64,000 nt of DNA, from positions 32,001 to 96,000 of the IMG/VR virus record IMGVR_UViG_3300008448_000014; one strand, given 5' to 3'. Below the pieces are notes generated by a model. That model was not told where the DNA came from. It saw nothing but the letters and a program-made list of their open reading frames with translations, and did no database searches. This document shows, piece by piece, positions 1-63,372 of the stretch (the stretch's first letter is position 1; the number at the start of each line of letters is the position of its first letter). The position numbers and the translations under genes are program-made. The DNA is from a virus.

Positions 1-759
1 TTCTTTTTTATCTAAATTAGGGTTTAATGAGTTAATGGTCCACCCATTAATTGGTTTTTTACTTTTGTCTAATTTTTTATAAATAAAATCAGAGATATTT
101 AAAAATTCCATAATTTCTGAAAATGTACTAAAAATTCTAATTTCTTTTTTTTCATAATTATATAAATATAAATAATCTTCTAAATGTAATTTACAAGTTT
201 TTGAAATAAATATATTATCTATAGATCTTTTAGATTTTATTCTACTAATTATAGCTTTAATAGTTGTATTAAATAATACAGCAGTAGAAGTAATACTTTC
301 TTCCTCTTTCAATAAATTTCCAAACTTATCAAACAAAAATAATTTTGTTGTTTTTTTCTTTATCTCATTTTTTTCATATTTTTCTTTTAATGTTTTACTT
401 ATTAATTTTTTAGTATCTTCTGTAGTTATTCTACTTTCAGGACCAATACCTCTATCTTGAGCATTTAATAAATTAAATTTATCTTTATACTTTCCTATTA
501 ATGATGTTTCAAAAATATATGATTCATTCCATCCTTTAATTTCAATCAATTTTTTAATTTTAGGTTCAATTCCTTTTTTTAATAAAGAATTTATCCAATT
601 TACTTTGTGGGGAGGATTTCTGTTAGGAAAATATTTATTATAATATTTTGATTTACTTATATGTTCAATTAACCTTATTTCTAAAGGTTTTCTAGTTCGT
701 CCAATGTATCTAATCTTACAATCTGTAGGATCATACAAACAATATATATTTACTTTCAT
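1..759 (-). CDS. GIY-YIG homing endonuclease (runs off window start; missing from the ORF track)
   Basis: Manual translation from ATG 759: MKVKYIYCLYDPTDCKIRYIGRTRKPLEIRLIEH..., a YIY-x-YIG motif with the catalytic Arg; the frame appears open to position 1. Confidence 0.85.
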   Translation of the reverse strand, partial: MKVNIYCLYDPTDCKIRYIGRTRKPLEIRLIEHISKSKYYNKYFPNRNPPHKVNWINSLLKKGIEPKIKKLIEIKGWNESYIFETSLIGKYKDKFNLLNAQDRGIGPESRITTEDTKKLISKTLKEKYEKNEIKKKTTKLFLFDKFGNLLKEEESITSTAVLFNTTIKAIISRIKSKRSIDNIFISKTCKLHLEDYLYLYNYEKKEIRIFSTFSEIMEFLNISDFIYKKLDKSKKPINGWTINSLNPNLDKKE

Positions 760-762
760 AAG

Positions 763-770
763 CAAATATA
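763..770 (-). promoter_or_regulatory. Bacteroidota -7 promoter box TATATTTG, 3 nt before the endonuclease ATG
   Basis: Matches the TAnnTTTG consensus; a TTTG lies at 786-789. Confidence 0.65.
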
Positions 771-803
771 ATTATAATTTTACAGCAAACTGGTATATAA
801 ATG

Positions 804-860
804 TTAAATTGTTGTTAAATCACCTGTTTGTCCTACAATTCCAATTAGTTTAGAGCTCAT
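804..860 (-). pseudogene. Orphan 5' stub of a P-loop NTPase gene, broken inside Walker A
   Basis: MSSKLIGIVGQTG-DLTTI*: a hydrophobic strand plus GxxG with no GK[ST]; starts 2 nt after the stop of ORF 863..1051. Confidence 0.7.
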
Positions 861-862
861 AT

Positions 863-1051
863 TTAATTATTAATTTTAGTTTGTAATTCTTTATCTGTTA
901 AAATATACTCTTTGCAATAAGTTGTAGATCCATTTTCTTCTAATACTACATTTCCATTTTTAATAGACTCTTTTAATAGATTTAAACGATCTTCGTCATT
1001 GTTACAGTATTCTTTTAACAACGCTAATACCTGTTCTTGTTTTTCATTCAT
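863..1051 (-). CDS. Hypothetical protein
   Basis: ORF track; co-oriented and tightly packed. Confidence 0.6.
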   Translation of the reverse strand: MNEKQEQVLALLKEYCNNDEDRLNLLKESIKNGNVVLEENGSTTYCKEYILTDKELQTKINN

Positions 1052-1114
1052 TTTTTAATTTATTTAGTTAATTTTTTAAAGAATAAAGATACAAATAATT
1101 TTTTTAATTATCAA

Positions 1115-1483
1115 CTATTCTACTCTATATTTTCTGTTAAATTCTATTAGCTTTTTAGCTAATTCCTCTGGGTTTAATTCTGATTCATCGTGATTATTAT
1201 CTCTTCGTTGATGTTCTTTAAACCACCATTCTAAATCTGAATTTACAAATTTATAATCAAAATTAGACACTACTATTTCCATAGCTTTACATAGAAATAC
1301 TGTCATAAAAGAATTAAAAGCAATGTTTTCTAGTTCTTTTAATTCTAAACTTTCTAACTCTATAATTCTTTTTTTTAATGATGCATTTTCATCAATTAAA
1401 TCATCAATAGGATTACTAGGTTTTTTAAAATTATTAGAATCTCCACAACAATTTGAATTCCATTCATCTACTCTACAAGGCAT
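1115..1483 (-). CDS. Hypothetical protein
   Basis: ORF track; begins 2 nt after the helicase stop. Confidence 0.65.
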   Translation of the reverse strand: MPCRVDEWNSNCCGDSNNFKKPSNPIDDLIDENASLKKRIIELESLELKELENIAFNSFMTVFLCKAMEIVVSNFDYKFVNSDLEWWFKEHQRRDNNHDESELNPEELAKKLIEFNRKYRVE

Positions 1484-1485
1484 AA

Positions 1486-2568
1486 TTATATATATTTAAT
1501 TTTGTTTTTATCTATTAATTGAAGTGATTTCTCAAGCCATTTATTTTGAAAAACTTCTGTACTCACAAATATATGTATATGTGAATGATCTGTATCATCT
1601 AGTAAACTTCTTCCTATCATTTGCTCTAAATTTTCTCCATTACCATTAATGGCAGTTATTAATATATTTTGCAATTCTGGAAAAGTTACACCAGCAGAAG
1701 CTTTCTTTAATAAACACAATTGATTTATATCTCCTTGTTGAAATTGTTTTAAAATAGAATCATCTTTACTTTTACTATTGAACATAGGAAGATTATATTT
1801 AAGTCCTGTTTTTTCATCAGAACTAAATAATATAAACCTCTTATCTTTGTTATTGATAATCCATTTGTTTACACATTCAATTAAAGAGTCACATGAATTA
1901 ATAAATCTCATTCTTTCTAAAGACTTAAACATCTTTAGTTGACCACTGCTTTTTAATATAAAAGCACTGAGTCTGTTACATTCTTTTTTCTCTGTTGATT
2001 TCCATTTCTTTACTCTACCATACTCTACTATTTTAGTGTTATTTAAATTATATCTATGTATATAAATAGTAAAATCACTAACAATACCATCTTTAATAGC
2101 TTTGTTAGTAGAATAATCTACTATCAATTTCATTTTAGTAAAAAACTTTATGTCAGCTAAAGTTTCTTTATTATACGTACCAGAAGCAAACATTACATGT
2201 TTATTGTTTTTTGCTATATCTCCTGCAATAGGCATTTGATTTTCTTCTCCAAGAAGATGAGCTTCATCAAATACATAATAATCAGCAATTACTTTTTTGT
2301 TTTTTTCTAAAGACATAAAAGTGGAAAATATAATAATTTGTTTAAAGTTTAATCTATTTATTTCATTTTCCCAAGAAATACGCACGTCTATATTAGGATA
2401 AGCTATAAACACTGTTATTTCTTTATTATTACTATGATTTTTTATTGATTCTAAAATCATTTTTGTTTTTCCTGATCTTACACTAGATAATATAATACCT
2501 TTACAATTATTTTCTATAATAGTATTTTGTATTTTTTCTTGAATTAAATCTTTTTTTGTATTAATCAT
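1486..2568 (-). CDS. Superfamily 2 (DExH) helicase
   Basis: Walker A SVRSGKT, motif II FDEAH, SGT, QMIGRSL; likely start ATG 2568 (MINTKKDLIQ) overlapping the endonuclease stop. Confidence 0.85.
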   Translation of the reverse strand: MINTKKDLIQEKIQNTIIENNCKGIILSSVRSGKTKMILESIKNHSNNKEITVFIAYPNIDVRISWENEINRLNFKQIIIFSTFMSLEKNKKVIADYYVFDEAHLLGEENQMPIAGDIAKNNKHVMFASGTYNKETLADIKFFTKMKLIVDYSTNKAIKDGIVSDFTIYIHRYNLNNTKIVEYGRVKKWKSTEKKECNRLSAFILKSSGQLKMFKSLERMRFINSCDSLIECVNKWIINNKDKRFILFSSDEKTGLKYNLPMFNSKSKDDSILKQFQQGDINQLCLLKKASAGVTFPELQNILITAINGNGENLEQMIGRSLLDDTDHSHIHIFVSTEVFQNKWLEKSLQLIDKNKIKYI

Positions 2569-3313
2569 ATTTATATTTCCATTTAAATCCACAAGATTGT
2601 TTTTGCCTACCTTTTAACGTTGCAGGTATATCTCCTTTAAAAAATTTTTTAGCTTCTGTTACAGTTTTCCATTCTTTAATAAAATTATCATTTAAATCAT
2701 ATTGTATTATAGGTTTTGAAACTCTTTCAGAAACTTTTTTTCTATTCTCAATTGACATACCTTTACCTATATTACCTAGTTTAATTTTTTCTTTAGTAAT
2801 TTCAGATAAAATTCTACCTTTTTTAGCTTTGCTCATTTTTTCACGAGCCTCTTTTGACATTTTTTTACCTTTGTTACCTTGAGAAATTTTTTTCTTAGTA
2901 TCTTCAGTATGTTTTTTATTTAAAAAATGTCCTACATGTCCTAATAATGTTTTAGATATTTTATTTTTAGTTTCTTGTAAAATTATTCTATTACTCATTT
3001 TTTTCTTTGTTTCCTCGCTTACTATTCTAGGTAAAATATCTGTTTCTTGTAATCTACAATTTAACCCTTTAGTGGAAACAACATTAAATAAATCTTGATA
3101 ATATCTTTCTTTAAGATTTAATTGATCATGTTTACATTCTTCAATTATTTCAAAAATATGATTTTCTACGCCATATTTTAAAAAGCTTTTATACAAAATA
3201 GGTTGATTTTTACAAGAAAGATTTTTATAATTTTTAAATCTTTTTTCAATATTAATACTTTGCCCAATGTATATTTTACCACTTGGACTTGTGATTTTAT
3301 AAATTCCTATCAT
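2561..3313 (-). CDS. GIY-YIG homing endonuclease with NUMOD3-like repeats and a C-terminal NUMOD1-like domain
   Basis: MIGIYKITSPSGKIYIGQS; repeated H/SEETKKKIS; PIIQYDLNDNFIKEW...GFKWKY; likely start ATG 3313. Confidence 0.92.
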   Translation of the reverse strand: MIGIYKITSPSGKIYIGQSINIEKRFKNYKNLSCKNQPILYKSFLKYGVENHIFEIIEECKHDQLNLKERYYQDLFNVVSTKGLNCRLQETDILPRIVSEETKKKMSNRIILQETKNKISKTLLGHVGHFLNKKHTEDTKKKISQGNKGKKMSKEAREKMSKAKKGRILSEITKEKIKLGNIGKGMSIENRKKVSERVSKPIIQYDLNDNFIKEWKTVTEAKKFFKGDIPATLKGRQKQSCGFKWKYKYD

Positions 3314-3343
3314 TTTGTATAAAATTAATTTTATACAAAAATA
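3313..3343 (-). promoter_or_regulatory. TATTTTTG -7 box overlapping a perfect 28-bp palindrome that reaches the start codon
   Basis: ttttgtataaaatt|aattttatacaaaa at 3313-3340; box at 3336-3343. Confidence 0.7.
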
Positions 3344-3388
3344 AGTAATTAATATCAATATTTGGACAAAGTATTATTTTTTTTTTAT

Positions 3389-3415
3389 CTACACTTGTAT
3401 TTCTGTTTTTGTCAT
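3389..3415 (-). pseudogene. Probable orphan 5' stub of the SF2 helicase gene
   Basis: MTKTEIQV*; its ATG overlaps the TGA of ORF 3412..3630 (ATGA coupling) and it resembles the helicase start TKKDLIQ. Confidence 0.45.
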
Positions 3416-4357
3416 AATTCTTTGTTATAATATTCTTCTTCAAAATGTTCATATAAAGCCATCAATGTGTAAGAATGTTTTTTTGTTAACCATTCAGCAA
3501 AATGAATTACTTTGTTATCAGTATTAATTTTTTCTAGTTCTTTTGCTTTTTCAATAATTGGTTCATCATCAGCTATACTCACACCAGTTAATGTTTTTAT
3601 ACCATCAACTACATATTCTACTGCTGTCATAACTTCTTAGTTAAATAATATTTTAAATCTAATGCTCTTCTTTTAACAGCACCAGACATTCTGGTATTGC
3701 TAATATCATGTTTACCTATAACTATTCCATTATAACTACTAACATATCCTGTTGTAGCTTTAGCAACTGTTATAGCTTCATCCACTGTATCTGAGAATCT
3801 TTTGATTTCAGATTTAATTTGTATTAAGTCTTCTAGTTTCATTTTTTATTATATTTTATTAATTTCTATTTTGTTTTAAATTATTTTTCCATTCTATCCA
3901 AAAACCTATAGCTACTAATATATTCATACCAAAAGAAGCAATAATTTCATGTAAGTCTTCATATATATTCATAGTTAAGTGAACATGTCCAATTACCCAA
4001 AAAGGTACTGATAAATTACTTGCTGTCCATGTTATAAAAAATATAATAAATTTTTTCATTTGTCTCCTTTACTAATCAAGTAATACCATAACCAAATCAC
4101 TTTTGGCCTTATAAACTCATAACCTATCCATATTAATAAGTATTTCATTCTTCTTTGTTTTTTATATATCCATATACATTAAAACCTTCTTCATCTTCAT
4201 ATTTAGTACCATCCTTACGAACTCCCCATTTATACCACATAGCCATAATTGTTGATTCATTAGTTTTACTCCATTTATCATCTTCAAACCTGAATTGTTC
4301 TTTGTCTGATTTTTCTTTAAATAAAGGAACAAATCCTTCTGGTTTTTCTTTTCTCAT
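3412..4357 (-). other. Cluster of small hypothetical CDSs (3412-3630, 3627-3842, 3859-4059 membrane protein, 4145-4357)
   Basis: ORF track; overlapping stop/start codons; 3859-4059 has two hydrophobic segments. Confidence 0.65.
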
Positions 4358-5427
4358 TATTGTAAAAAATATGATTTGTTAATAATACTTTCATAATCTG
4401 CATCTGTAATATCTCTTTTTCTAGGCAATTCCTTGAAAATTCCTAATTTTCCTAAAAATGCAAGTCCAATTCTAATATCATCTTCACCATATGAATTTTT
4501 CAATAATCTTAAACTTCTGAAATATTTACCACCATACTCATCTTTGAGTTTGTTAAGATCATATCCAGAAGTATCTTCCACTTTATATCTCACAGGATCA
4601 AATAGAGCAAGAACAACATCTGCATCATTTTGTGTGCTAGATGAATCTGAAAAATCTTCTAGTTGAGGTTCTACATCTCCTGCTTTAAGTCTCATTGGAT
4701 TAGATATACTTCTATTAAACTGACTAACAATTACAGGAGTATAACCAAAGAAATCTCTAACATATTGAAGTTCATTTGACATTTTATCAATTGCTTCTTT
4801 TTTTGTTGGCTGATCTTTTGTTGTTTTCAATAATCCTATATGGTCAATAATAACAATAGTTATTACATTAGGATCATTAGGAACATATACTTTGCTATAT
4901 TCATCATCAGGATCTTTTTGTATTATTTTACCATTCTTTAGAGCGTGTGCTCTTAGTTCTTTGGCTATACCTACAGGATTCTCTGGACCATCTATAACTG
5001 TAATAACATCTTTCATCTTATCCATATACCATTGATAGGAAAGAAATAATTTATGTTCATCTTCAGTCATTTTTTCTGTCCAACCTAATAGTCTATTAAC
5101 AGACATACTTATACCATGATCAAGAAATATCTTTCTACACACCCATTTTGCATACTTGTATGTAGAACTTCTCTCCATTGATCTATATATAATCTTTAAC
5201 TTTATATCTGTATTATTCTTTTTAGATATATACCAATCAAAAGGATTAAGAACAAAACAATCATCTATAAAAGAAGTTTTACCACTTCCTGTATTACCAC
5301 CAATAAGAAACATCATAGACTTCCTAATACCTATATATCTATTAAGTCTATCAAATCCCATAGGAATACCATTATTGTTTCCTTCCAATCCTTTATCAAC
5401 TTCTCTCTTTAATTGCTCAAAACTCAT
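4357..5427 (-). CDS. DnaB-like (SF4) replicative helicase
   Basis: GGNTGSGKT, SMER, IIDHIGLL, VSQFNR, QNDADVV, LKNSYG motifs; TATTTTTG box at 5451-5458 upstream. Confidence 0.88.
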   Translation of the reverse strand: MSFEQLKREVDKGLEGNNNGIPMGFDRLNRYIGIRKSMMFLIGGNTGSGKTSFIDDCFVLNPFDWYISKKNNTDIKLKIIYRSMERSSTYKYAKWVCRKIFLDHGISMSVNRLLGWTEKMTEDEHKLFLSYQWYMDKMKDVITVIDGPENPVGIAKELRAHALKNGKIIQKDPDDEYSKVYVPNDPNVITIVIIDHIGLLKTTKDQPTKKEAIDKMSNELQYVRDFFGYTPVIVSQFNRSISNPMRLKAGDVEPQLEDFSDSSSTQNDADVVLALFDPVRYKVEDTSGYDLNKLKDEYGGKYFRSLRLLKNSYGEDDIRIGLAFLGKLGIFKELPRKRDITDADYESIINKSYFLQ

Positions 5428-62751: not shown

Positions 62752-63372
62752 ATGGCTTCATTTACAGGAATTATATATTTAACAACAAATTTAATAAATG
62801 GTAAAATTTATATAGGACAAAGTTTTTCTACTAGTTGTTACTATAAAGGAGGAGGAAGTGCCTTAAAAAAAGCTATAGCTAAATATGGTAAATGTAATTT
62901 TAAAAAACAAATTTTAATAGATAATGTAGAAACAGCTAATCAATTAAATTGTTTAGAAAAATTTTATATTAAATTATATGATTCTTCAAATAAAACTATA
63001 GGATATAATATAAGAGAAGGTGGTGAAAATAAAGCTTTTAAACACACAAAAGAAGCAAAACTTAAAATTATAGAAAGAAGTAACCAATCAGATAATAAAA
63101 AAAGAATAAAAGAAATACAAAAATTAGCAGCAATTTCTAGAGTAGGAACACATCATACAACTTTTTCTAAATTAAAAATGTTAACAACAAAATTTGGAAG
63201 ATTAAAAGAAATTGAAATTTATGATAAAGAAAATAATTTATTGTATACTTGTAATTTTTCTACAGAAGCTGAAAAATTAACTAATGTTAAATCATCTGGT
63301 ATAAGAAATAACCTATCTGGATTATCACAATCTGCAGGTGGATTTGTTTTCAGATATAAAAATATAAAATAA
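62752..63372 (+). CDS. GIY-YIG (Seg-like) homing endonuclease fused to the first codons of its target gene
   Basis: MASFT-GIIYLTTNLINGKIYIGQ; YKGGG; C-terminal IEIYDKENNLL...AGGFVFRY. Confidence 0.9.
   Translation: MASFTGIIYLTTNLINGKIYIGQSFSTSCYYKGGGSALKKAIAKYGKCNFKKQILIDNVETANQLNCLEKFYIKLYDSSNKTIGYNIREGGENKAFKHTKEAKLKIIERSNQSDNKKRIKEIQKLAAISRVGTHHTTFSKLKMLTTKFGRLKEIEIYDKENNLLYTCNFSTEAEKLTNVKSSGIRNNLSGLSQSAGGFVFRYKNIK

Follow-up and report, generated by a model that had tools for sequence, protein, structure and literature searches.

We find that the ATPase gene of a crAss-like phage very probably carries a homing cassette that needs no splicing: it lies 13 codons into the gene, inside the Walker A motif, and brings a replacement 5′ end with it, so that the original start of the gene is left behind as a displaced stub. 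The best reading of the cassette is a conserved left end, a predicted promoter of its own, an endonuclease gene and a respelled copy of ATPase codons 1–13. As the cassette-borne start makes the ATPase whole, neither RNA nor protein splicing is required.

The stretch of DNA analysed (the window, 64,000 nt) comprises bases 32001–96000 of one 113,909-bp contig (28.6% G+C), the overlapping ends of which suggest a complete, circularly permuted genome. A nucleotide search against deposited phage genomes returned no match; at the protein level, the deposited phages that match best are crAss-like, with about 41% identity, the top match (41% identical) being to crAss-like phage cr128_1, and the window belongs to a crAss-like phage genome. 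We designate the genome under study as G000 and the related loci compared with it as L002–L137; L001 is a 12-kb stretch across the left edge of the window, in which positions equal the window position plus 10000. The stub is surrounded by a minus-strand replication module encoding a DnaB-type helicase, an SF2 helicase-like gene, the ATPase, a 286-aa protein and a primase. In the order of transcription, the features of the ATPase locus are as follows.

863..1051, minus strand: 62-aa ORF, whose stop lies 2 nt before the stub ATG and marks the native start position of the ATPase gene
822..860, minus strand: stub, read from the sequence as the displaced ATPase 5′ end (start codon plus 12 codons)
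801..821, minus strand: left end of the cassette, an A/T-rich motif of about 17–20 nt that holds five junk codons and the stop at 806–804
763..789, minus strand: promoter-like region of the endonuclease gene, with TTTG at 789–786 and a −7 box of the TAnnTTTG type at 770–763
1..759, minus strand: GIY-YIG gene HEG1, first 253 of 301 codons, running 146 nt past the window edge
L001 9857–9186, minus strand: complete 223-aa ORF of a Sak4-like ATPase, starting 143 nt beyond the left edge of the window

The stub opens with an ATG at 860–858, and 860–822 reads M-S-S-K-L-I-G-I-V-G-Q-T-G, covering the first strand of Walker A together with its first two glycines; the five junk codons D-L-T-T-I and the stop follow. 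The initial annotation, made from the window alone, had described a Walker A beginning of this kind that degenerates into DLTTI and is followed, within about 60 nt, by a box and a near-leaderless GIY-YIG gene, and it had predicted a complete NTPase gene just beyond the left edge with a start overlapping the endonuclease stop. All of this was borne out: the endonuclease ATG lies 62 nt from the stub, the 223-aa ORF is present with the start motif M-x-x-K-L-I-G-I-V-G-x-x-G-x-G-K-S/T, and its ATG overlaps the TGA of HEG1 (ATGA). The first 13 residues of this ORF (L001 9857–9819) are identical to those of the stub and run on into T-G-K-S-T, completing an intact Walker A (G-x-x-G-x-G-K-S-T); the two copies are spelled differently at nine of the 13 codons, with silent changes only. 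The protein matches Pfam AAA_24 (PF13479) over residues 6–195 with 34.4 bits (cut-off 27, E 2.6e-8) and the PHROG family of Sak4-like ssDNA annealing proteins (phrog_2872) over residues 4–223 (E 5.3e-53). From this full-length family match and the intact Walker A, we assign the NTPase as a predicted Sak4-like ssDNA-annealing ATPase.

Genome-wide, and setting aside the overlap of the contig ends, the stub and the ATPase form the only case of an ORF start whose first 12 residues recur elsewhere. An assembly artefact is ruled out, because an independent metagenome contig (L096) has an arrangement identical to that of G000 and five diverged lineages show the same layout. No counterpart of the 62-aa ORF was found upstream of the ATPase gene in L002–L081. 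Together with a 122-aa ORF it occupies the interval between the helicase-like gene and the stub (window 863–1483, minus strand), and neither small ORF is present in the 80 relatives examined, so the slot 5′ of the ATPase gene is variable in the crAss-like family.

Many phage introns are sited in conserved catalytic motifs, and a gene broken inside such a motif could also be read as one that contains a group I intron with an endonuclease gene, the stub being exon 1 and the second exon starting at the P-loop. We regard this as extremely unlikely for the ATPase locus. The 62 nt between stub and endonuclease ATG and the 0 nt between endonuclease stop and ATPase ATG leave no room for a ribozyme; Rfam reported no intron in the window (gathering scores), in L001 9000–11200 (E ≤ 1) or in seven related loci (E ≤ 0.1); and the downstream gene is whole, with a start of its own and all 13 duplicated codons, so that a ribozyme core flanked by joinable exons is not what is found here. 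The initial annotation had named an intron core, or the lack of any NTPase after the endonuclease, as outcomes that would speak against its reading; an NTPase does follow, and spacing and Rfam search alike gave no sign of a group I core. What does lend the intron some credit is a related endonuclease in L086, which interrupts dnaB within Walker A without a duplicated start. There (2777–4929), a gene with a related GIY-YIG N-terminal domain splits a DnaB-type helicase into residues 1–47 and 48–342; the second part has no in-frame ATG, Rfam found no intron, and the arrangement could be an undetected intron or something else.

The product of HEG1 has the hallmarks of a GIY-YIG endonuclease of the I-TevI/Seg type, that is, both motifs of the domain (residues 5–9 and 17–20) together with the conserved Arg, Glu and Asn. 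Across 14 full-length homologues Y6, Y18, G20, R21, R29, H33, E84 and N99 are invariant, and a profile of these homologues aligns the helix carrying the Glu and Asn to the GIY-YIG domain of UvrC, weakly (E 0.2). A Pfam search with HEG1 did not detect GIY-YIG and gave a single match, to NUMOD1, just below the cut-off; its N-terminal domain is 36–42% identical to that of a neighbouring endonuclease which matches both Pfam GIY-YIG and the PHROG annotation "homing endonuclease". The AlphaFold model (mean pLDDT 78, N-terminal domain 80–92) has GIY-YIG domains as its top fold matches, namely the I-TevI catalytic domain, UvrC and T4 EndoII (TM 0.62–0.69 on target).

Upstream of HEG1, the box TATATTTG at 770–763 ends 3 nt before the ATG at 759. 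We take the TAnnTTTG-type −7 box to be the consensus of Bacteroidota sigma-A, and a promoter is predicted here. Five of the six lineages that carry the element (see below) have a TAnnTTT[G/A] box whose distance to the endonuclease ATG is 3–8 nt, the exception being L082 with a weaker, T/A-rich match only. The left-end motif likewise follows the stub, and supplies its stop, in five of six lineages (G000, L097/L098, L082–L084, L085/L099 and L100), and it is conserved though the endonucleases of these lineages share just 61–72% identity. It contains two TAA triplets in different frames. A first alignment had suggested that the stub continues past codon 13 with a 6-nt deletion in the P-loop; the segment proved to be the motif conserved in five lineages. 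Similarity of the motif to ATPase codons 17–22 is significant only in G000 (14 of 18 positions; reached in 1 of 500 shuffles) and not in the other lineages.

To place the element in the family, we scanned IMG/VR with the ATPase, which gave 291 relatives, and examined the best 80 (79–97% identity). None of these best 80 of 291 has an endonuclease of the HEG1 type before its ATPase gene. A single-sequence search for HEG1 in IMG/VR found nothing; occupied loci were recovered with a HEG1 profile in IMG/VR and metagenomes. The identity of the endonuclease homologues P0002–P0013 is 91–61%. The occupied loci fall into six lineages (G000, L082–L084, L085/L099, L097/L098, L100 and L101) with ATPases that are 49–83% identical, and wherever both flanks are available the endonuclease lies directly upstream of the Sak4-like gene and a stub is present. 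The ATG is intact and followed by in-frame codons in every lineage, 11–13 stub codons in all, with the break after codon 11, 12 or 13, and the endonuclease stop overlaps the ATPase ATG in four of the six.

This recurrence bears on the reading in which no homing took place, and a mosaic join of two phages duplicated 39 nt and trapped the endonuclease as a passenger, passive or inactive. Such a scar would accommodate the mosaic nature of phage genomes, the absence of the segment upstream of the G000 stub, with its two small ORFs, from the nearest relative L002, and an endonuclease whose activity is a prediction from its sequence. We nevertheless hold it to be very improbable, as the junction recurs within two codons in six lineages, all six endonuclease ORFs are intact (299–304 aa) with invariant catalytic residues, and the same design is repeated at three other G000 genes with unrelated endonuclease paralogues.

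In a maximum-likelihood phylogeny built from the ATPase body (residues 21–222; 71 rows), at least four changes, be they gains or losses, are required to account for the presence of the endonuclease: G000 clusters with two empty alleles, L002 and L003, as does L097 with the empty L066. Sporadic presence at one fixed site, as seen here, is the pattern of a homing endonuclease. Between occupied lineages, the identity of the endonucleases is usually below that of the ATPases (e.g., 62% vs. 79%); unlike every other pair, L085 and L097 show the reverse, with endonucleases 69% and ATPases 59% identical, which points to a movement of the endonuclease between lineages. Overall, the two identities are partly correlated (r = 0.58), and much of the inheritance may thus be vertical.

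Such a correlation is also what a single ancient insertion followed by vertical descent would leave, the stub being retained for a function of its own (as a short upstream ORF or landing pad controlling expression, or as an operator bound by the endonuclease) and not renewed by homing. The intact ATG with its 11–13 in-frame codons in all six lineages, and the conserved motif that gives the stub a stop in five of them, fit with this as well. The scattered presence on the tree and the incongruence of L085 and L097 do not, nor does the variation of the stub end point and of the tail peptide among lineages, and we consider descent from one ancient insertion to be improbable; two further points that bear on it, the spelling of the stubs and their decay at other loci, are taken up below.

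The neighbourhood of the stub was compared over the 320 nt 5′ of it (tblastx with low-complexity masking). For L085, L097 and L101 this region had no match among the other loci, and for G000 it had short, weak matches only, which we judged spurious; in L082 and L100 the upstream context is one that also occurs in endonuclease-free alleles. We also considered whether L002 is a product of endonuclease loss and rejected this, since the likeness between its 185-nt spacer and the endonuclease region is not significant (score 45, with a maximum of 49 in shuffles); the spacer holds a different small ORF.

Which of the two starts is native was addressed in five occupied lineages by comparing their first 33–39 nt with 65 distinct endonuclease-free alleles. 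In all five, most empty alleles resemble the stub more than the working start, by 61 alleles to 3 in G000 and by 58:2, 56:9, 55:10 and 48:14 in the others. The working starts of the six occupied genomes rank 0–6 from the bottom of the 65 in mean similarity to empty alleles, and the 13 codons that follow the first 13 are typical in G000, L097 and L100. The working starts moreover have states in common that empty alleles seldom show (Fisher p 3e-4 to 6e-3), namely second and third codons of the AGY-TCN type and third-position bases at nt 12, 24 and 30; the AGY-TCN type also supplies the A of the ATGA overlap. Working starts that are outliers and share a haplotype fit with a start segment that travels with the endonuclease, and stubs that follow the spelling of empty alleles are expected of the recipient's own DNA, which again argues against an ancient insertion with a stub kept apart from homing. 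The other side is represented by L085, in which stub and working start share lineage-specific residues, yet 11 of 13 codons differ; this requires a long coexistence of both allele types in one lineage or selection on the stub.

For the 39-nt segment of G000 itself the comparisons point both ways: the stub matches the empty alleles L003, L004 and L029 at 33–35 of 39 nt, whereas L002, the nearest empty relative (95% nucleotide identity over the gene body), matches the working start at 32 and the stub at 28 of 39. The initial annotation had spoken of a diverged start, which holds in that nine codons differ; the divergence is confined to silent sites and is of a level ordinary among natural alleles. 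L002 and L003, both empty, have eight silent differences over the same 39 nt, and we therefore rejected the nine silent differences as proof of deliberate recoding. An arms-race signature was not seen family-wide either, the silent diversity of codons 1–13 (0.48) not being raised relative to the rest of the gene (0.34–0.52).

The same design, two copies of one gene end flanking an endonuclease gene with one copy working and the other orphaned, was found not only at the ATPase gene but also at polA, at the helicase-like gene and at a fourth locus of G000. The features of these further loci, and of a neighbouring endonuclease gene that has no stub, are as follows.

16184–16065, minus strand: polA stub, a 39-codon ORF ending exactly at the ExoI D-x-E-T-x-G motif
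16003–15242, minus strand: GIY-YIG gene of the polA locus, 253 aa, preceded by a promoter-like box
15242–13212, minus strand: polA, with a one-base stop/start overlap with the GIY-YIG gene
about 3415 (start; locus 1486–3452), minus strand: helicase stub, decayed
2568–1486, minus strand: SF2 helicase-like gene, preceded by a GIY-YIG gene at 3313–2561
62752–63372 (locus to 63400), plus strand: fourth GIY-YIG gene, opening with five codons, fused in frame, that duplicate the beginning of the next gene
L001 8461–9105, minus strand: stub-free GIY-YIG endonuclease of 214 aa, 895–1539 nt left of the window, flanked by the genes of the ATPase and the 286-aa protein

The likeness to polA had been recognized in the initial annotation and holds in its order of stub, GIY-YIG gene and overlapping polA. 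When the N-termini of the four nearest relatives of PolA are taken for comparison, the polA stub shows 78–82% identity and the working N-terminus 53–60%, with the remaining 635 residues of PolA 80–81% identical to the same four; judged by these identities, polA in G000 is clearly a hybrid gene. In L137, polA is occupied at the same position by an orthologous endonuclease, and the stub there is decayed. At the helicase, the first 22 nt of the stub are those of the native start in L002, after which come an internal deletion and a break just before the G-K-T/S of motif I. The helicase alleles among the relatives are of two very different types, 28–31% identical to each other. At the fourth locus, the GIY-YIG stop overlaps the ATG of the next gene, and the stub is minimal. 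The decayed stubs of the helicase and of L137 polA, with their internal deletions or frameshifts, indicate that stubs are not needed as protein, which is a further argument against an ancient insertion in which the stub was preserved for its own function.

The 214-aa endonuclease downstream of the ATPase looks like an ordinary free-standing, intergenic endonuclease. An orthologue with 66% identity occupies this position in L080; most relatives have a small ORF or nothing there.

For the mechanism of the splicing-free cassette, including cutting, copying, target site and immunity, we draw on yeast WHO elements and the mORFs of fungal mitochondria as analogues. By this analogy, the enzyme would cut endonuclease-free alleles in or near the conserved P-loop codons, and the break would be repaired from an occupied genome, with the stub and anything upstream of it serving as the left homology arm and the gene body as the right arm; the repair would bring in the replacement start along with the endonuclease gene and its promoter. 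The occupied genome would be immune, its stub lacking the P-loop half of the site and its working copy having an atypically spelled upstream half.

The cassettes may go further and represent a natural "home-and-rescue" drive of phages, which targets the most highly conserved catalytic codons of essential genes for replication and recombination, carries a cut-resistant start and keeps the stub as a portable left arm; we offer this tentatively, with confidence somewhat short of even. If true, the proposed targets would be the Walker A motifs of Sak4 and the helicase and the ExoI motif of PolA, where escape mutants are costly, and the portable arm would allow invasion of alleles without a common upstream neighbourhood. 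This role of the stub may matter because the 320 nt upstream are without a credible relative in four of the six lineages. The logic recalls that of synthetic HomeR gene drives, in which the rescue copy is reportedly recoded against cutting. As outlined by Kandul et al. 2021 (PMC7968924), the HomeR nuclease also targets an essential gene, broken resistant alleles are lost and a rescue copy is carried; in that outline HomeR is synthetic, guided by RNA (Cas9) and placed in a diploid animal, so the analogy is one of design only.

Among natural systems, the WHO elements of Torulaspora and Lachancea at FBA1 consist of an endonuclease gene that travels with a resistance-conferring end of the host gene, and the duplicated fragment has been proposed to provide the second arm of homology, while the host gene undergoes chimeric evolution (Coughlan et al. 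2020, PMC7282813). Both systems are free of splicing and leave the displaced native end alongside as a fragment. They differ in that WHO elements act on a nuclear eukaryotic gene, whose 3′ end they replace from a position downstream, encode an intein-like (LAGLIDADG) nuclease with zinc fingers and accumulate fragment arrays over successive rounds of homing (PMC7282813), whereas the phage cassette has a GIY-YIG enzyme, replaces the 5′ end from a position upstream of the working copy, leaves behind just one stub of 13 codons and couples stop and start. The mORFs of fungal mitochondria create gene hybrids at atp6 of Allomyces macrogynus and at atp6, atp9, cox2 and nad3 of Glomus (Beaudet et al. 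2013, PMC3630166). Here too an endonuclease ORF (LAGLIDADG or GIY-YIG) carries a foreign gene terminus, the differences are largely silent, and the native terminus is kept unexpressed and is nearer to the sequence of relatives than the inserted one; in contrast to the phage cassette, with its N-terminus, predicted promoter of its own and stop/start overlap, mORFs replace the C-terminus and are often fused in frame (PMC3630166).

The Seg and Mob endonucleases of T4-like phages, which practise “intronless homing”, are likewise free-standing GIY-YIG or HNH genes of phages with promoters of their own, located outside introns and inteins and targeting a nearby conserved gene, but they sit between intact genes and leave no duplicated gene end (PMC2988022). 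The cassette of T4 MobA and gene 60 likewise has a diverged copy of the deleted target segment; there, the host gene is split into two proteins and translational bypass is needed (bioRxiv 10.1101/2022.08.31.505936), whereas the phage ATPase stays in one piece without recoding. In the literature that we searched, the 5′-end form was not found described in phages, and the element at the ATPase locus is a well-documented example of a splicing-free homing cassette with a family-wide comparison.

By the textbook, a homing endonuclease occupies a gene without killing it by way of an intron or an intein. Terminal replacement is a third route into genes that requires no splicing, known to date from the 3′ ends of genes in yeast and in fungal mitochondria, and its 5′-end mirror image is used repeatedly within one phage genome, at three core replication and recombination genes and a fourth gene. 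The cassettes explain orphan mini-ORFs and "diverged" N-termini in phage annotation, in which stubs are easily miscalled as split genes or introns. They also provide candidate nucleases, which may be specific for P-loop and ExoI coding sequence. The cassette spans a widespread environmental family of crAss-like phages, and core phage genes such as polA are predicted to evolve as chimeras, which matters for trees calculated from such genes.
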